DNA from: Solirubrobacterales bacterium
Lineage (GTDB): Bacteria > Actinomycetota > Thermoleophilia > Solirubrobacterales > 70-9
DNA: 32,568 nt
Direction: 5' to 3'
Assembly: GCA_035703345.1 (NCBI GenBank)
Contig: DASSYK010000012.1
Coordinates: forward strand, 1-32,568
The translations under genes and the position numbers were made by a program. The notes under the pieces were generated by a model. It worked only from the letters and a program-made list of their open reading frames with translations, did not search any database and had not been told where the DNA came from. Numbering within the stretch: position 1 is the first letter of the stretch; the number at the start of each line of letters is the position of its first letter. Below, one piece after another: positions 2,489-29,405 of this stretch.

Positions 2489-3715
2489 CTAGCGGACCCC
2501 GAAGCCCTCGCCGCTGATGCGGTCGATGTCGTTGCTGAGCCCGATGAAGAAGAGCATCAGGATCAGCACGAAGCCGATCGCGCCGCTGCGCTCCATCACC
2601 GAGAACGGGACGCGCTCGCCGCGGAGCTTCTCGACCACGGACCAGAAGATGTGCCCGCCGTCGAGGGGCAGGAAGGGGAAGAGGTTGATGATCGCGAGCG
2701 AGAGGCTGATCAGTCCGAGGATGAAGATCGCCAGCTCGGCGTCGAAGTCGATCGCCTGGCGCGTCGTCTCGTAGCCGCCGACGACGCTGCCGATCTGCTC
2801 GCGCTGCTGGGGGTCGATCAGCTTGGCGGGGATCTTCGCCGTCTCGCGGGTGATGATCCACATCTGGCCTATCGCGGTGTCGGCCGCCTCGAGCATCGAC
2901 GGGTTGACCGGGCTCACGTCGGTGGGGTCGAACTGGACGCCCATCAGCATCCGGTCCGCCTCCTGGTCGTACTTGGGCGTCACGAGCTCTGTCACCCGGC
3001 GCCCGTCCCGCTCGACCACCACGGTGACCGGTGAGGAGGCCGAGCAACCGTTCTCCTCGCCCTGGGGGCAGGTGTGGGTGTTGGTCTGATCGCGGAACTC
3101 GTCGGCGCGGTCGTCTCCCTCGAGGTTCGCCGCCGCGACGCCGTCGATGGACACGACCTTGTCACCCTCCTGGAGCTTGCCCTCGGCCGGCGACTCGCTC
3201 GAGATCGCCTCGATCTCGAGAGTCGGGCCGGTGATCTCCTCGGCGCCGAACGCGAGCCCGAAGAAGATCGCGAAGGCGATCAGGACGTTGACGGCGGGCC
3301 CCGCCGCGATCACGACGATCCGCTTCCAGACGGGCTGGTTGTAGTACGCGCGATCGACGATCTCGGGCTTCAGGCGGCCGTCCGGCAGACGGTCGTCGGA
3401 GGGGTTCTGGCCCGCGGACTCGATCCGGTTCAGGAGGTCGTTCGGCGTATCCCCCTCCTCTTCCGGGCCCTCCCTCTTCGGCGGCTTGGGCTCGAGGTCG
3501 TCGGGGTTCATCCCGGTGATCTTCACGAAGCCCCCCGCGGGGATCGCCCCGATCCCGTACTCGGTCTCGCCGCGCTTGAAGCTCCACACCTTCGGCGGGA
3601 AGAAGAGGAAGAAGCGCTCGACCCGCATCCCGGTCCACTTGGCGACGATGAAGTGCCCGAACTCGTGCAGGATGATCAGGACGGCGAAGCCGGCGAAGGC
3701 GAGCAGCCAGCTCAT
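2489..3715 (-). CDS. rseP: RIP zinc metalloprotease RseP / site-2 protease, M50 family (408 aa)
   Basis: HEFGH zinc motif in TM1, a PDZ-like middle region and NLFPFLPLDGGH near the C-terminus. The start is the ATG at 3715, which overlaps the dxr stop (ATGA). The 77 Arg/Gly-rich residues upstream in the ORF track were discarded. Confidence 0.85.
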   Translation of the reverse strand: MSWLLAFAGFAVLIILHEFGHFIVAKWTGMRVERFFLFFPPKVWSFKRGETEYGIGAIPAGGFVKITGMNPDDLEPKPPKREGPEEEGDTPNDLLNRIESAGQNPSDDRLPDGRLKPEIVDRAYYNQPVWKRIVVIAAGPAVNVLIAFAIFFGLAFGAEEITGPTLEIEAISSESPAEGKLQEGDKVVSIDGVAAANLEGDDRADEFRDQTNTHTCPQGEENGCSASSPVTVVVERDGRRVTELVTPKYDQEADRMLMGVQFDPTDVSPVNPSMLEAADTAIGQMWIITRETAKIPAKLIDPQQREQIGSVVGGYETTRQAIDFDAELAIFILGLISLSLAIINLFPFLPLDGGHIFWSVVEKLRGERVPFSVMERSGAIGFVLILMLFFIGLSNDIDRISGEGFGVR

Positions 3716-4866
3716 GCGACCGCCAGTCCCTCGATCAGCCCGCGGGCATGCTCGCGGGCGCGTAGGTCGGTCTCGAAGAGCTGCTCGAAGTGCGACGCGG
3801 GCTCGGCCGGGATGTCCCCGAGGCAGCGCTCGACCACCTCGGCGATCCCGGTGAAGGGGATGCGCCCGCCCAGGAACGCCTCGACCGCGACCTCGTCGGC
3901 GGCGTTCAGAACGCAGGGCCCGGTGCCGCCGGCCTCCCCCGCCCACCGGGCGAGCCGCAGGCAGGCGAACGTGTCCGTGTCGGGCTCCTGGAAGGTCAGC
4001 TCGCCGACGCTCGCGAGGTCGAGCGCCGGCACGGCGACGTCGGCGCGCTCGGGATGGTGGAGCGCGTAGGAGATCGGCACCCGCATGTCGGGGTAGCCGA
4101 GGTGGGCGAGTGACGCGCCGTCGTTCAGGTGCACGAGCGAGTGGACGATCGACTGCGGATGGACGACGACGTCGATGTCGTCGTAGGGCACGCCGAAGAG
4201 GTGGTGGGCCTCAATCATCTCGAAGCCCTTGTTCATCAGGGTCGCGGAGTCGATCGTGATCCGGCCGCCCATCTCCCAGGTGGGGTGCGCCAGCGCGTCG
4301 GCCGCGCTGATGCCGGCGAGGTCGGTGCGGCCGCGGAAGGGCCCGCCTGATGCGGTGAGGACGAGCTTGGTGACGGTGCCGGGCGGCTCGGCGCGGATCA
4401 GCTGGTGCAGCGCGGAATGCTCCGAGTCGACGGGGATCAGGCGGGCGCCCGTGGCCTCCGAGAGCGCGGTCACCAGCTCGCCGCCGATCACCAGCGACTC
4501 CTTGTTGGCCAGCGCGACGTCGATCCCCTCGGTGAGCGCGACGATCGTCGGGCCGAGACCTGCCGCTCCGACGATCGCGTTCAGCACGAGGTCGGCGCCG
4601 GCCGAGTCGATCAGGGCGCGGATCCCCTCCTCCCCGGGCAGCACGCGGCCGTTCCAGGCGGCGCCGGCCAGCTCGGCGGCCTCCGGGTCGGCGAGGGCCA
4701 CGGCGGGCACGCCGTACTCCCGCGCCTGCTCCAGCAGCGGCTCCCAGCTCGACCCGGCCGAGAGGCCGGCGACCTGGAGCGTTCCACCGCTCGTGGCGAC
4801 GACTTCGAGCGCCTGGGTGCCGATCGAGCCTGTCGATCCGAGTATCAGGACCTTCTTCGTGCTCAC
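3712..4866 (-). CDS. dxr: 1-deoxy-D-xylulose-5-phosphate reductoisomerase (384 aa)
   Basis: N-terminal VLILGSTGSIGTQALEVV NADPH-binding motif and Dxr-like sequence along the full length. GTG start at 4866. Confidence 0.95.
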   Translation of the reverse strand: MSTKKVLILGSTGSIGTQALEVVATSGGTLQVAGLSAGSSWEPLLEQAREYGVPAVALADPEAAELAGAAWNGRVLPGEEGIRALIDSAGADLVLNAIVGAAGLGPTIVALTEGIDVALANKESLVIGGELVTALSEATGARLIPVDSEHSALHQLIRAEPPGTVTKLVLTASGGPFRGRTDLAGISAADALAHPTWEMGGRITIDSATLMNKGFEMIEAHHLFGVPYDDIDVVVHPQSIVHSLVHLNDGASLAHLGYPDMRVPISYALHHPERADVAVPALDLASVGELTFQEPDTDTFACLRLARWAGEAGGTGPCVLNAADEVAVEAFLGGRIPFTGIAEVVERCLGDIPAEPASHFEQLFETDLRAREHARGLIEGLAVA

Positions 4867-9899: not shown

Positions 9900-10954
9900 C
9901 AGGAGCCCCCTTCCTCGGTGGTCGCGGGGGGCGACTCATCGCCGGCATCTGCTCCGCTCGCACTCGCTTCACTCGTGCTCGCCTCCGCGCTGCCGGGTGG
10001 CTGCGCGGCAGCGGCGGGCTCGCTGGGGGCTTCTTCCGCGGGGTTCGACTGCGGTTCGGCCTTGGGAGCCGCCTCGGCCTTGGCCTTCTGCTCCGCGTCC
10101 GCCTTGGTCTTCTGCTCGGCGGCCGCGCGAGCCTTGGCCTCCGCCTCGGCCTTGGCCTTCTCCTCGGCCTCCTTCTTGGCCTTCTCCTCGGCCTCGCGCC
10201 GCTTGCGCTCCTCTTCCTCCTTGCGACGCTTCTCCTCCTCCTCGGCCTTGCGGCGGGCCTCCTCCTCGCGCCAGACCGACGCGGAGGCGTCGATCGCCTC
10301 GCCGAGTGTGCGGATGATCAGGCCGTCGGAGCGGATCGCGTCATCGTTGCCTGGGATCACGAAGTCCACCGGGGTCGGGTCGCAGTTGGTGTCGACCAGG
10401 CCGATGATCGGGATCTCGAGGCGCTTGGCCTCGCGCAGCGCGATCTCCTCGGTCTTGAGGTCGACGATCACGACCGCGTCGGGCAGCCGCTGCATGTCCG
10501 CCACGCCACCGAGGTTGAACTCGAGCTTGCGCAGCTCGGCCTCCATCGTCATGCGCTCCTTGGTCGGGAGCAGGTCGAGCCGGCCGTCCTCCCTGAGGCC
10601 GCGCAGCTCGTGGAGGCGCTGGATGCGCTTCTTGATCGTGTTGAAGTTCGTCAGCAGCCCGCCGAGCCAGCGCCGGCTCACGTAGGGCATGCCACAGCGC
10701 TCCGCCCACTCCTCGACCGCGTCGCGCGCCTGCTTCTTGGTGCCGACGAAGAGGACGGTCCCGCCCTTCCGGGCAACGTCGGAGACGAAGTCCGTCGCCT
10801 TGTTCAGCAGCTCCTCGGTCTGGAGGAGGTCGATGATGTGGATGCCCTCGCGCTCGCCATGGATGTAGCGGCGCATGCGCGGGTTCCATCGCCGCGTCTG
10901 GTGACCGAAGTGAACTCCGGCCTCCAGCAGCTCTCTGATGCCTACCTCGGCCAT
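9899..10954 (-). CDS. rpsB: 30S ribosomal protein S2 with a long charged, low-complexity C-terminal tail (351 aa)
   Basis: Motif LLEAGVHFGHQTRRWNPRMRRYI. The conserved S2 core runs to about residue 228 and is followed by an E/K/A-rich tail. The SD GGGAAGGA lies upstream of the ATG at 10954. Confidence 0.95.
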   Translation of the reverse strand: MAEVGIRELLEAGVHFGHQTRRWNPRMRRYIHGEREGIHIIDLLQTEELLNKATDFVSDVARKGGTVLFVGTKKQARDAVEEWAERCGMPYVSRRWLGGLLTNFNTIKKRIQRLHELRGLREDGRLDLLPTKERMTMEAELRKLEFNLGGVADMQRLPDAVVIVDLKTEEIALREAKRLEIPIIGLVDTNCDPTPVDFVIPGNDDAIRSDGLIIRTLGEAIDASASVWREEEARRKAEEEEKRRKEEEERKRREAEEKAKKEAEEKAKAEAEAKARAAAEQKTKADAEQKAKAEAAPKAEPQSNPAEEAPSEPAAAAQPPGSAEASTSEASASGADAGDESPPATTEEGGS

Positions 10955-11104
10955 CTTGTCCTTCCCATTCGCTTTGCTCTTCGCGAGCGGGGCCGTCCGT
11001 GGCCTCGCTCCTGGATGCCTCGCCGCCGCGGTGGGGAACCCGGGCCGTGGCCCGAGCAGCGTCCCCGCGCCTTGCGACGAGGGTCGGATTACGTTCGGCG
11101 GGGG

Positions 11105-26565: not shown

Positions 26566-27648
26566 GTGAAGCGCTGGGTCAAGATCCTCCTGGCGGTGTT
26601 CGCCGGGATCGTGATTTTGCTCGTTCTCAACGCGATCACGGTCTCGAACGAGACCAAGGACGCCGAGCGCAACGTCGAGGGGGCCGAGCTGATCGACACC
26701 GCCAAGGGCGAGGTCCAGGTGCTCGAGGAGGGCGATCCCGCGGGCAAGCCGATCGTGCTCGTCCACTGCTACACGTGCTCGATGCACTGGTGGGACGAGA
26801 TGGCGCCGCAGCTCGCCGCCGACCACCGCGTCATCCGCACCGACCTGCTCGGCCACGGCGGCTCCGCCAAGCCCGGAAGCGGCTACTCGATCGAGGACCA
26901 GGCCGCCGCCATCGCGGAGGTGCTCGGCCGGCTCGACGTACGCGACGCGACCATCGTCGGCCATTCGCTCGGCGGCACCGTCGCGGCCGCGATCGCCGAG
27001 CAGAGCCCGGACGTCGCAGCCAAGGTGGTCATCATCGACCAGGCCGCCGACGACAGCTACGAGGACCTCTCGTTCCTCGCCGAGCTCGGCTACGAGCCCA
27101 TCGTCGGCCAGGCGCTGAAGCGCGTCACCGAGGTGGCGCCGAACTCGGTCGTCCGCGACGAGTACGAGCAGGCCTTCGCGCCGGACTTCAACATCGCCAG
27201 CGGCTTCGAGAACCCCGACCAGGTCGTCGACGACTTCGACGCGATGACCTACACGGCCTACAAGGAAGCCGCCGAGGCCGAGGGCGACTACACCGAGGTC
27301 CGCCCCCTCGACGACCGCCTCAGCGCGCTGCAGATCCCGGTGCTGGTGATCTTCGGGACCGAGGACCAGATCTACGACACGCCGGCCGCGGTCGAGCGCT
27401 ACGAGGACATCGAGAACGTGCGGATCGAGCTGATCGAGGGCGCCGGCCACTCCCCCAACGTGGAGGCGCCCGACCGCGTCGCCGCCCTGATCGCCGCGTT
27501 CGCGGCAGCCCCGACACCCGCGGAGATCGCCGCCGCCAAGGCGGCCGAGCGCGCCGCCGCGAAGAAGAAGGCGCGGGCGGCCAAGGAGAAGTCCGCGGCG
27601 GCGAAGGGCGGCGCGAAGAAGAGCGCCCCCGAGCAGCAGGGCGAGTGA
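26566..27648 (+). CDS. Membrane-anchored alpha/beta-fold hydrolase with an Ala/Lys-rich tail (360 aa)
   Basis: GTG at 26566, 5 nt after the HD gene stop. N-terminal TM helix ILLAVFAGIVILLVL, nucleophile elbow VGHSLGG and a late GAGHSPNVE His motif. Confidence 0.8.
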   Translation: MKRWVKILLAVFAGIVILLVLNAITVSNETKDAERNVEGAELIDTAKGEVQVLEEGDPAGKPIVLVHCYTCSMHWWDEMAPQLAADHRVIRTDLLGHGGSAKPGSGYSIEDQAAAIAEVLGRLDVRDATIVGHSLGGTVAAAIAEQSPDVAAKVVIIDQAADDSYEDLSFLAELGYEPIVGQALKRVTEVAPNSVVRDEYEQAFAPDFNIASGFENPDQVVDDFDAMTYTAYKEAAEAEGDYTEVRPLDDRLSALQIPVLVIFGTEDQIYDTPAAVERYEDIENVRIELIEGAGHSPNVEAPDRVAALIAAFAAAPTPAEIAAAKAAERAAAKKKARAAKEKSAAAKGGAKKSAPEQQGE

Positions 27649-27681
27649 GGCAAAACAAAGGGCCCAGTTGCCTGGGCCCTT
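27649..27681. terminator. Bidirectional intrinsic terminator
   Basis: A perfect 10-bp stem, AAGGGCCCAG-ttgc-CTGGGCCCTT (27658..27681), begins 10 nt after the hydrolase stop codon. On the minus strand it is followed by UUUGUUUUG (27657..27649). On the plus strand it is preceded by the matching A-tract. Confidence 0.7.
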
Positions 27682-27762
27682 CGCCTTGGATCGGCCTTGC
27701 GGCTTTTCCAGTTCGAGTGGTCTTTCGACCTCTCTGGAAACGACTTGCGTCGTTCCCTATGC
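27650..27762 (-). ncRNA. Predicted orphan sRNA of about 110 nt, family unknown
   Basis: Bounded by the promoter at 27796..27768 and the terminator at 27681..27649, with no ATG or GTG inside. Four adjacent hairpins lie at 27757..27736 (loop GCAA), 27734..27715 (loop GAAA), 27710..27687 (loop GCAA) and 27681..27658 (loop GCAA). Confidence 0.45.
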
Positions 27763-27767
27763 AGAGC

Positions 27768-27796
27768 AATCTACGCCCCGGCGCACGTCACGTCAA
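27768..27796 (-). promoter_or_regulatory. Near-consensus sigma-70/SigA-type promoter TTGACG-N17-TAGATT
   Basis: On the minus strand the -35 TTGACG lies at 27796..27791 and the -10 TAGATT at 27773..27768, with an exact 17-nt spacer. It sits in a non-coding, lower-GC stretch. Confidence 0.5.
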
Positions 27797-27870
27797 GTGG
27801 TTGTGAGCCGCGCTTCCCGCAAATCGCGGACAAGTCGGCCCTTCGAGCCTTCGACTCCCGGCCGCAAAGA

Positions 27871-27905
27871 GGTCTTTGTGGGGTCCATAGGCCCCACAAA
27901 CGACC
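27871..27905 (-). terminator. Long hairpin followed by UCUUUG, a candidate terminator for the zinc-ribbon gene
   Basis: GGUCG-UUUGUGGGG-loop-CCCCACAAA-GACC forms about 13 bp with one bulge. On the minus strand it is followed by TCTTTG. It lies 61 nt downstream of the stop codon at 27966. Confidence 0.4.
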
Positions 27906-27965
27906 GACATTCGCCGAGCGCGCCCGGGGCGCCGCGTCCGACGCGAAACGGCGGGCGCCCGAGCC

Positions 27966-28301
27966 TCAGCGCCAGCGGCCGCCTTCCTTCGCCCACTGGG
28001 CCAGGTGGTCGACGGAGCAGAAGCCGTCGGGGATGCGGAAGTCGCCGCGGTGGCTGACGAGGAGGACGTGGACGTCGCCGAGCTCGGCCTCGCAGAAGGA
28101 GCAGCGGGAGACCTCGTCGTCGATGCCGCCGTCCTCGGTCAGCGTGCCCGCGTCCCAGTGTGCGTCCTGCATGGCCCAGGGGACGACGTGCTCGAGGCGG
28201 CAGAAGACCGCACGGCGATCGCCGGCGGGCTCGTAGGCGCGGAAGCCCTCGCCCATCTCGACGGCGGCGCCGCACCAGGTGCACTTCTCGGTGCCCGTCA
28301 T
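27966..28301 (-). CDS. Small protein with tandem CxxC-X23/24-C-X3-H (TRASH/FCS-like) zinc-ribbon repeats (111 aa)
   Basis: Start at the ATG at 28301. Repeat 1 is CTWCGAAVEMGEGFRAYEPAGDRRAVFCRLEHVVPWA. Repeat 2 is CSFCEAELGDVHVLLVSHRGDFRIPDGFCSVDHLAQWA. The rest of ORF 27966..29348 is antisense to the dehydrogenase gene. Confidence 0.65.
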   Translation of the reverse strand: MTGTEKCTWCGAAVEMGEGFRAYEPAGDRRAVFCRLEHVVPWAMQDAHWDAGTLTEDGGIDDEVSRCSFCEAELGDVHVLLVSHRGDFRIPDGFCSVDHLAQWAKEGGRWR

Positions 28302-28337
28302 GGGTGAGCCGGCGCTCGCCGGGGTAGGTTGACCGCC

Positions 28338-29405
28338 ATGGCGGCGCTCAGGATAGTCGTGCTCGAGGGCGACCAGACCGGCCAGGAGCTGCTCGAGCAG
28401 TCGCTGCGGGTGCTCGAGCCCGGGGTGATCGGCCTGGAGGTCGAGCTGCAGCGGTTCGACCTCTCGCTGGAGAGCCGGCGCGAGACGAAGAACGAGGTCT
28501 GCGAGCGAGCGGCGGCGGCGATGGTCGAGGCCGGCCTCGGGCTGAAGGCCGCGACGATCACGCCGGAGGGCGCCGACGACGTCGGCAGCCCGAACCGGAT
28601 CATCCGCGAGGGGATCGACGGCAAGGTGATCGTCCGGACCGGGCGGCGGATCCCCGGGGTGACTCCGTTCGGGGGCATCCACCACCCGATCTCGGTGGTG
28701 CGGATGGCGGTCGAGGACGCCTACGGCGCGAAGGAGTCGCGCGAGGTCACCGACGGCGACGAGGTCGCCTACCGGACCGAGGTGATCCACCGCTCCAACT
28801 GCCGGGCGGTCGCGGAGTACGCCTTCCGCACCGCACAGAAGATCGAGGGAAAGGTCTACGGCGGGCCGAAGTGGACGGTCAGCCCCGTGTACGAGGGGAT
28901 GCTGAAGGAGGAGATGGACGCCGCCGCCGAGCGCCACCCCGGCACGCCGTACGAGCCGGTCCTGATCGACGCGACCTACGCCGGGCTGATCACCGGCCGC
29001 GCGGACTGCCCGCTGGTGGTCCCGTCGTTGAATCGCGACGGCGACCTCCTGTCCGACTTCGTCCTGCCGCTGTTCGGATCGATCGCGGGGGCCGAGTCGA
29101 TCCTGCTCTCGCTCGACGAGGAGCTGCGTCCGCGGGTGGCGATGGCCGAGGCCCCACACGGGACCGCGCCCGCCCTGGAGGGCAAGGACCTGGCGAACCC
29201 GATGGCGATGATCCTCGCCGTCGGGGCCCTGCTCGACTACGCGGCGACCAGGGGGCATGACGGCGCCGAGCGCGCCTCGCGGGCGGTCTACGCCGCCGTG
29301 ATGGAGACCACCGTCGCGGGCATCCGCACACCCGACCTCAAGGGCCACGCCTCGACCACGGAGTTCACCGACGCCGTGATCGAGCGCATCGCCGGAGCCC
29401 GCTAG
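28338..29405 (+). CDS. Isocitrate/isopropylmalate dehydrogenase family protein (355 aa)
   Basis: Motifs RIVVLEGDQTGQELL and PSLNRDGDLLSDF (the family metal/substrate motif). I preferred the ATG at 28338, with GGGGTAGG upstream. The TTG at 28329 is an alternative. Substrate specificity was not assignable. Confidence 0.85.
   Translation: MAALRIVVLEGDQTGQELLEQSLRVLEPGVIGLEVELQRFDLSLESRRETKNEVCERAAAAMVEAGLGLKAATITPEGADDVGSPNRIIREGIDGKVIVRTGRRIPGVTPFGGIHHPISVVRMAVEDAYGAKESREVTDGDEVAYRTEVIHRSNCRAVAEYAFRTAQKIEGKVYGGPKWTVSPVYEGMLKEEMDAAAERHPGTPYEPVLIDATYAGLITGRADCPLVVPSLNRDGDLLSDFVLPLFGSIAGAESILLSLDEELRPRVAMAEAPHGTAPALEGKDLANPMAMILAVGALLDYAATRGHDGAERASRAVYAAVMETTVAGIRTPDLKGHASTTEFTDAVIERIAGAR

Follow-up and report, generated by a model that had tools for sequence, protein, structure and literature searches.

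What is encoded in the 317-nucleotide (nt) gap between two convergent genes of a Solirubrobacterales bacterium, if anything is encoded there at all? The gap lies at 27649..27965 of contig DASSYK010000012.1 (assembly GCA_035703345.1), whose 32,568 nt we analyzed as a single window, and it separates the stop codon of an alpha/beta-hydrolase gene (27646-27648, plus strand) from the stop of a zinc-ribbon gene (27966, minus strand). A first-pass annotation, made from the sequence alone, had described the gap as visibly less GC-rich than its surroundings and had proposed that it contains an orphan small RNA (sRNA). When minus-strand positions 27840-27640 were re-read, the gap, its coordinates and its sequence were as described, and the GC fraction is 0.59 at 27650-27799, compared with 0.70-0.77 in the flanks. 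The answer at which we arrive is that 27762..27651 on the minus strand is very probably a genuine, independently transcribed sRNA gene. It is predicted to belong to a Solirubrobacterales family that appears to be previously undescribed, whose regulatory signature is clean and whose modular evolution is unusual.

The predicted RNA (27651..27762, minus strand) is ∼108-112 nt long, with a start placed at G27762-A27760, 6-8 nt after the -10 hexamer, and a predicted 3' end in the U-run at 27659-27652. Its minimum free energy (MFE) fold reproduces exactly the four abutting GNRA-capped hairpins drawn earlier, with loops GCAA, GAAA, GCAA and GCAA. Hairpin 1 (GGGAACGAC-GCAA-GUCGUUUCC, 27736..27757) is the ancestral 5' hairpin of the family, and hairpin 2 (GAGAGGUC-GAAA-GACCACUC, 27715..27734), which contains an A-A mismatch, is the first internal module. 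Hairpin 3 (UGGA-AAA-GCC-GCAA-GGC-CGA-UCCA, 27687..27710) has a 3x3 internal loop and is the last module, kept in the whole clade of expanded relatives described below. The fourth is an intrinsic terminator (AAGGGCCCAG-GCAA-CUGGGCCCUU followed by UUUGUUUU, 27652..27681) with a 10-bp G+C stem (helix 27681-27658) that abuts the hydrolase stop. All four lie on the minus strand. The fold of minus-strand 27762..27650 has an MFE of -61.2 kcal/mol (z = -7.13) and none of 200 shuffled sequences is as stable, and the plus-strand complement folds 10 kcal/mol worse. One element of the original description does not hold: the recurring AGG/GGA motifs, which had been taken to be single-stranded, are nearly all base-paired in the MFE structure. 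Outside the loops and the internal-loop and mismatch bases, only UA, A and GAAC are unpaired.

The terminator hairpin and its U-run are plain in the sequence. A consensus terminator scan did not list this terminator, probably because G-T pairing extends the stem into the T-run. The predicted RNA contains no ATG on direct reading of the sequence, and Tandem Repeats Finder reported nothing at 27650-27800. No minus-strand gene follows, as had been noted, and the terminator runs straight into the antisense 3' end of the convergent hydrolase gene. Because its stem is palindromic, the terminator scores on the plus strand too, and it probably also ends the hydrolase mRNA.

Does this RNA have a promoter of its own? 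The promoter proposed for the minus strand, with its exact 17-nt spacer, is present at 27796-27768 as TTGACG-17-TAGATT, and from its sequence we predict it to be of the housekeeping -35/-10 type. TTGAC of the -35 hexamer (TTGACG, 27791..27796) is nearly invariant across the aligned promoters of the family, and the -10 hexamer (TAGATT, 27768..27773) corresponds to a family consensus of TAGGGT/TAnnTT. Farther upstream on the same strand are a GCTCAC box of putative function (27803..27808), which falls in a conserved column block and corresponds to a TTCAC/TTGAC-like box ∼11 nt upstream of -35 in the family, and the palindrome TCCGCGATTTGCGGGA (27815..27830), with a CCGC-N5-GCGG core, 20 nt upstream of -35. 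This palindrome, at 27830-27815, is outside the coordinates originally given and belongs to the sRNA gene. With the start placed 6-8 nt after the -10 hexamer, it is a putative transcription-factor site centered near -62, where class I activators classically bind. Within the window, the exact CCGCNNNTTGCG motif is found at the sRNA promoter and once more at 11065, and nowhere else.

Promoter-like sites are scarce in the 32.6-kb window, where both strands together hold 3, the sRNA promoter among them, against ∼0.9 expected by chance. That scarcity is suggestive, but it is not decisive alone, and it can equally be cited for the view that there is no functional RNA gene here and that a chance promoter-like site happens to stand beside palindromes or terminator hairpins in a convergent gap. 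The abutting G+C hairpins do resemble clusters of repetitive extragenic palindromic (REP) sequences or bacterial interspersed mosaic elements, and the number of hairpins is labile among relatives. What decides between these views is the conservation of the element in other genomes.

Relatives were gathered through the zinc-ribbon protein, giving 80 species-level genome loci and 80 metagenome loci. The linkage of the sRNA to the zinc-ribbon gene is thus partly by construction, because loci were chosen through that gene; its linkage to the hydrolase gene is not. Family members occur in 39 of 80 species-level Solirubrobacterales/Thermoleophilia genomes and on 31 of 80 metagenome contigs, where they occupy the gap that separates the zinc-ribbon gene from the hydrolase 3' end. 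A hidden Markov model (HMM) of the promoter region, applied at E <= 1e-3 to 168 sequences (the window and 167 loci), found 113 units in 75 of them, all on the zinc-ribbon strand. In 108 of the 113 units (96 distinct sequences), the next 300 nt hold an RNA that ends in a terminator-like hairpin; the remaining 5 are contig-end truncations or misses of the terminator pattern, and none of the terminator-less units that we read leads into a protein gene. The RNA is therefore an orphan only in the sense that it matches no described family, since homologues are many: promoter, 5' hairpin and terminator are kept in more than 100 homologous units, so that the conservation in relatives that had been expected of a real gene is found. 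One contig closes with an inverted duplication (L088 1080-1166) whose fold-back runs through the 5' hairpin of the sRNA, almost certainly an assembly artefact due to the hairpin.

The promoter is the most conserved part of the family. All 113 units carry the palindrome TCCGCnnnTTGCGGA exactly 20 nt upstream of -35, and the order is constant: palindrome (TCCGCAGATTGCGGAA, reversed in the type A units defined below), 20 nt, TTGAC(N), 17-18 nt, TAGGGT/TAnnTT, with a conserved CA near the predicted transcription start. Promoter, palindrome, fixed spacings and start region are retained across species whose flanking proteins share just 60-80% identity. Within the 750 kb sampled, no protein-coding gene was seen to be preceded by this architecture. 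The invariant spacing suggests that a dimeric transcription factor probably binds the palindrome and controls the promoter. In many loci the -35/-10 spacer itself is conserved between types A and B (TCGCTGTTGCRAGRCG; for example, L017 3794-3860 and L061 3374-3434) and holds a second TTGCG half-site; the clade to which the window belongs lacks this conserved spacer. The half-site, together with the TTSAC box 11 nt upstream of -35, hints at a second regulator or a looped complex.

If selection acts on an RNA, then its helices should covary. Among 33 distinct RNAs of the minimal form (type B), all 694 cells in 22 pairs are paired (100%) and 10 pairs show compensatory changes; none of 500 shuffles reaches any of five measures, and slid controls are at most 64% paired. 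Of the four stems that had been put forward for covariation testing, hairpin 1 and the terminator thus covary in relatives, but hairpins 2 and 3 receive only modest support. The pairing of hairpin 1 is kept in 11 expanded relatives through GAC:GUC, AAC:GUU, UAC:GUG and GGC:GUC variants; in L089, two of its pairs have turned into an internal loop. The L008 and L046 orthologue of hairpin 2 reads GGAGAGACC-GCAA-GGUCAcUUC; two of its pairs differ in a compensatory fashion, and the A-A mismatch is retained. Because MAFFT alignments of the 5' hairpins and of the whole expanded RNAs placed the 3' arm or loop one column off or split it with gaps, hairpin 1 and the modules were counted on loop-anchored sequences, and alignment A2 was used only for the last module and the terminator. 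Two points tell against the RNA interpretation here: hairpin 3 and the terminator, in 10 sequences, show 2 compensatory pairs, a measure equaled by 135 of 500 shuffles, and the outer-stem counts are partly circular because the stems were picked by folding. Hairpin 3 is mostly invariant in the expanded clade, so what supports the modules specific to the window appears to be conservation and comparison with paralogues rather than strong covariation. The G-U pairs and the 10 kcal/mol difference between strands imply that selection acts on the minus-strand RNA, and the stem sequences GGAAC/GUUCC and GCC-GCAA-GGC are conserved beyond what pairing needs.

These results also bear on whether the hairpins are dispersed repeats. 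In ∼750 kb around this one type of locus, the GCCGCAAGGC core occurs 29 times, ∼20 of them inside family sRNAs and on the sRNA strand; the remaining 9 are isolated occurrences dispersed over both strands, and the 6 that we read look like chance, several being in protein-coding sequence. The concentration of the core in sRNAs on one strand argues against a dispersed REP-like repeat. Taken with the retention of promoter, palindrome and spacings in 113 units beside a much more divergent protein, and with helices that covary on one strand only and include G-U pairs, it leaves the proposal of no functional RNA gene largely refuted, and we regard it as extremely unlikely. The reading of the element as a stand-alone, terminator-ended structured sRNA has survived every computational test applied, and we adopt it as a prediction in what follows.

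How, then, is the family built? Type B, ∼60 nt long, consists of a 5' hairpin (GGAAC..GNRA..GUUCC; AACGGAACAAGG-GAAA-CCUUGUUCC), a 2-5 nt linker and the terminator. This minimal form is the ancestral one; only the first hairpin and the terminator of the window RNA are therefore ancestral, and its middle hairpins are lineage-specific. Type A, ∼80 nt long, has a single long imperfect hairpin and a terminator, and in many relatives it comes immediately after the zinc-ribbon gene. It shares its promoter architecture with type B and is absent from the window and from the expanded type-B clade. The type A hairpin has the form CUUGAAC..GGUUGAUC-GNRA/UNCG-GGUCAAUC..GUUCAAG, as at L011 3431-3520, L055 3434-3521 and L061 3434-3521 (alignment A5). 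Between type-A and type-B units, a conserved leader (GGCCGAUGAGUCGG..GGUCAGUAGGU) precedes an inserted membrane-protein open reading frame (ORF; MPTSRSIQRTYLLL...) at L065 3560-3625 and also in L031, L037, L060 and L067; it matches nothing in Rfam and may represent a cis-regulatory element not yet described.

The window RNA is a type B RNA with two extra modules. In its sub-clade, 1-6 modules stand between the 5' hairpin and the terminator: one in L014, L095 and L112, two in the window, three in L151/L166 and L004, four in L001 and L089, and five in L008, with L046 carrying two tandem genes of 3 and 2 modules. A module comprises a 2-7 bp outer stem, an internal loop that is purine-rich and symmetric (1x1 to 4x4, such as GAAA/GGAA), a G+C stem of 3-5 bp, mostly GCC..GGC, and a tetraloop. 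The use of GNRA loops is a strong preference only. All four loops in the window are indeed of this type, but relatives also use UCAC, UUCG and UCCG: among 45 hairpins in ten expanded RNAs, 41 loops are GNRA, 3 are UCAC and 1 is CUUG, and the apical loops of type A may be UUCG or UCCG. Since all these loops are used, extra-stable tetraloops appear to be selected rather than GNRA itself.

A covariance model (R1) built solely from minimal type-B RNAs matches the window at 27714..27653 (minus strand; 29.4 bits, E 2e-5) and aligns the 5' hairpin of the minimal forms onto the last module, hairpin 3. This placement hints that the modules are duplicated copies of the ancestral 5' hairpin. The unit GGAA-GCC-GCAA-GGC-GGAA also tops the long hairpin of another family scaffold (L007/L010/L020), and a similar unit, GAAGGAA-CCC-GAAA-GGG-CGACGGA, tops the long hairpin of L040. 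Whole genes have been duplicated in tandem as well, each with its promoter, palindrome and terminator: L046 has two expanded type-B copies (3364-3610 and 3674-3850) and L040 has three copies of a divergent variant (3958, 5038 and 5232). The growth of an sRNA by module duplication is unusually clear in this family, from a 60-nt RNA with two hairpins to 200-nt arrays of near-identical hairpins and tandem gene duplicates.

The name 'orphan' rested in part on the absence of any match to the signal recognition particle (SRP) RNA, 6S, RNase P, transfer-messenger RNA (tmRNA), 6C or the hammerhead, and that absence is upheld: with Rfam 15 (4227 models), no match reaches its gathering score in the whole window, nor in 13 related loci that carry all variants. 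In an E-value-mode scan of 27550-28000 (451 nt), the best matches score 16-18 bits against gathering scores of 39-45, with E-values of 0.1-1.5. These include BjrC68 (RF02353), M-box (RF00380) and STnc40 (RF02057), which have in common with our RNA a local GCAA hairpin and a G+C terminator stem; we rejected all three (16-18 bits) as chance-level matches to generic hairpins. ARAGORN found no tRNA or tmRNA, BLASTN found no match among plasmids, and searches of the full-text literature turned up no sRNA studies of Solirubrobacterales, Thermoleophilia or Conexibacter. In viral contigs, the 5'-hairpin pattern has 3 matches, which score 11-16 bits with the covariance model, lack a terminator and are attributed to chance.

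Several other identities were considered and set aside. A riboswitch or 5' leader does not fit because no gene follows on the same strand, the antisense 3' end of the hydrolase gene being next in the window and in all flanks read, and a type III toxin-antitoxin RNA (ToxI-like) does not fit because no same-strand toxin gene follows the RNA and the repeats are not exact tandem units. The GAAC..GTTC elements are not a LexA (Cheo) box, as their spacing is 12-14 nt, not 4. The internal loops lack both the conserved loop nucleotides needed for mimicry of SRP domain IV and the asymmetric bulge of a K-turn. The family resembles 6C RNA (Rfam RF01066) in being a small, highly structured, widely conserved actinobacterial sRNA with stable hairpins and a terminator. 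However, 6C RNA is defined by two C-rich loops, whereas the loops here are GCAA/GAAA, there is no Rfam 6C match at any threshold, and the distribution seen here is limited to Solirubrobacterales/Thermoleophilia.

What might such an RNA do? The position of the type-B units raises the possibility that they act in cis. Wherever the downstream flank of a type-B locus was read, the sRNA abuts the 3' end of the hydrolase gene, even where 1-2 kb of additional genes now separate the type-A from the type-B units, and in the minimal forms the hydrolase stop codon lies inside the 3' tail of the RNA (GCUAUUU). The sRNA gene could accordingly be a convergent partner of the hydrolase-HD operon, in which the two share a terminator, read-through produces antisense RNA, and pairing, RNase III or polymerase collision sets hydrolase expression. 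On the hydrolase strand the hairpin has no U-run, so read-through into the sRNA gene is plausible. The arrangement is like that of other bidirectional terminators and convergent 3' overlaps, the hairpin abutting the hydrolase stop and being palindromic enough to fold on both strands; such terminators are common between convergent genes and need not regulate. A shared terminator needs neither a dedicated conserved promoter nor extra conserved hairpins, both of which are found here. Moreover, the whole neighborhood is syntenic anyway, with gene order kept in homologue contigs (Iso_dh, zinc ribbon, gap, convergent hydrolase, HD protein, EPSP synthase, HisRS), and in many loci that lack the sRNA the hydrolase gene directly abuts the zinc-ribbon gene. 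The strong terminator limits overlap from the sRNA side, and a cis role leaves the conserved hairpin sequences and the multiplication of modules unexplained. We consider it unlikely that this is the function of the RNA.

A trans-acting, base-pairing sRNA would be the conventional expectation, since base-pairing is the commonest mode of stand-alone, terminator-ended bacterial sRNAs. A hairpin arm (for example, GGAAC/GUUCC or the purine-rich flanks) would open and pair with target mRNAs, altering their translation or decay. Stem sequences conserved beyond pairing needs are what a seed would produce, and tandem paralogues with a common promoter motif resemble multi-copy base-pairing sRNAs. Qrr1-5, PrrF1/2 and AbcR1/2 are multi-copy sRNA families under one shared regulator site, and here, likewise, the sister types A and B and the tandem duplicates adjoin and share the upstream motif and -35/-10 layout. 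However, those families use single-stranded seeds together with Hfq, whereas the present RNAs are predicted to be nearly all paired. The only single-stranded stretches are the few bases named above, the loops are closed GNRA tetraloops, and very stable stems would have to melt before pairing. RNAduplex pairings with five neighboring gene starts and with the 3' end of the hydrolase gene did not outperform shuffles (z from -2.2 to +1.5), although this is a weak method that over-extends duplexes. Gain and loss of modules would also keep altering the context of a seed. Base-pairing thus seems about as improbable to us as the cis role.

We instead tentatively favor a decoy, which we regard as possible but well short of probable: a regulated, almost fully helical RNA that would titrate a hairpin-binding protein. 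It is favored because the RNA is almost wholly helical, its stems are conserved beyond pairing and one hairpin type has been multiplied, and decoy action is proposed because the RNA offers no single-stranded seed. Induction of the promoter would cause the sRNA to display one or several copies of a sequence-conserved hairpin; the displayed hairpins would titrate a hairpin-binding or double-stranded RNA-binding protein, and a change in hairpin number would tune how many protein molecules are held per RNA. Because the loops can become UNCG or UCAC, hairpin stability and flanks would matter, not loop-loop pairing. Module number that varies between close relatives, combined with tandem gene duplication, is a pattern known from titrating RNAs. 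A candidate partner is the adjacent double FCS/TRASH-like zinc-ribbon protein, which might act as the RNA partner or as the regulator of the promoter.

Several observations weigh against the decoy. The minimal form has one non-terminator hairpin, so multivalency is not ancestral. Half of the genomes keep the zinc-ribbon gene without the sRNA, which argues against an obligate protein-RNA pair, and the zinc-ribbon model has no significant fold neighbor that would show RNA binding. In addition, the relatives were all collected through the zinc-ribbon gene, which places copies elsewhere in the genomes, and the regulon of the palindrome, outside the sample.

In architecture, the nearest analogue of the family appears to be the CsrB/Rsm class. 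CsrB/CsrC and RsmX/Y/Z (Rfam CL00106) are likewise stand-alone sRNAs with a conserved palindrome upstream of their own promoter and a Rho-independent terminator; they too are chains of short hairpins whose number varies between relatives, and they occur as paralogous copies in one genome. Is the RNA then a CsrB/RsmZ-type sponge for a CsrA-family protein, acting through its recurring GGA/AGG motifs? Such motifs flank most modules (GGAA-GCC-GCAA-GGC-GGAA) and the repeat number is variable. The upstream palindrome is also reminiscent of the GacA/UvrY box in the promoters of rsm/csr genes, and flagellar genes are usually accompanied by CsrA-FliW. Flagellar gene clusters occur in 41%-91% of species of the basal actinobacterial classes, Thermoleophilia included (PMC10746217), which would suit a sponge of this kind. 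Neither the text nor the supplements of that study (PMC10746217) were found to report the presence of csrA in Thermoleophilia. The structures themselves differ in the feature that defines the class: CsrB/Rsm RNAs present GGA in the loop, whereas here the GGA motifs are in stems and internal loops, not in hairpin loops or single strands, and the hairpins, with their purine-rich internal loops, are capped by GNRA (occasionally UCAC) rather than ANGGA. With the Rfam model PrrB_RsmZ, whose gathering score is 44 bits, the match reaches 10.4 bits and lies on the wrong strand. In minimal family members the array is absent, the ancestral form having a single hairpin. A sponge for CsrA itself is therefore very unlikely.

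A broader version of the titration idea deserves mention. The family may represent a Csr/Rsm-like circuit in which a transcription-factor-controlled array of identical internal-loop hairpins sequesters a hairpin-binding protein, possibly the zinc-ribbon protein, with a copy number tuned by lineage from 1 to 7; as a specific proposal we hold this to be quite unlikely. Actinomycetota are generally thought to lack global sRNA-binding proteins (neither Hfq nor ProQ is known there), and CsrA is not established in the phylum. If the array does titrate a protein, it would be a new solution to post-transcriptional control in Actinomycetota; if it does not, Rfam and the annotation of metagenome-assembled genomes (MAGs) would still gain a clean new family. 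Solirubrobacterales and Thermoleophilia, Actinomycetota that abound in soil, have seen hardly any molecular genetics, and the precise, conserved promoter architecture offers a handle both on the putative regulator, through the palindrome, and on the RNA partner.

The gene directly upstream of the sRNA on the same strand (27966..28301, minus strand) encodes a 111-aa, DUF7576-like protein in which an FCS/TRASH-like C-x2-C...FC-x3-H unit occurs twice. Pfam matches to zf-FCS (13 of 33 members) and ribosomal L24e (4 of 33) are all below gathering cut-offs, and DUF7576 also matches. Both zf-FCS and L24e are nucleic-acid-binding folds. The protein has 939 homologues, those with names being Solirubrobacterales MAG proteins. 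A PDB sequence search gave no match, and its AlphaFold model, which has a pLDDT (predicted local distance difference test) score of 92, found nothing below E = 1 in a Foldseek comparison with the PDB. A 9-bp hairpin, UUUGUGGGG-CCUAUGGA-CCCCACAAA, lies at 27880-27906 (minus strand), upstream of the sRNA promoter and ∼60 nt past the zinc-ribbon stop. Probably it serves as the terminator of the zinc-ribbon gene, which makes it unlikely that the sRNA is a 3' untranslated region of that gene.

On the other side of the zinc-ribbon gene, the Iso_dh gene diverges from it with a spacer of almost nil. The third promoter-like site in the window (TTGACC-17-GATAGT, 28329-28357, plus strand) overlaps the program-listed TTG start of the Iso_dh ORF; the real start probably lies further downstream, and the Iso_dh transcript may be leaderless.

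The convergent hydrolase gene (26566..27648, plus strand) encodes 360 aa matching Pfam Abhydrolase_1/6 (E ∼1e-26), and its stop codon touches the sRNA terminator. The C-terminus of the protein is a Lys/Ala-rich, histone-H1-like tail (AAKKKARAAKEKSAAAKGGAKK) encoded within 27500-27648 (plus strand), part of it by a 21-nt tandem repeat at 27562-27607 (plus strand). Similar basic hydrolase tails adjoin the sRNA terminator in relatives whose flank was read. Elsewhere in the window, a coding region contains tandem repeats (CCGCCTCCGCCTTGGCCTTCTCCT-like; periods 24, 18 and 27 nt) at 10069-10252, which presumably encode, on the opposite strand, a low-complexity segment rich in Glu, Lys and Ala.

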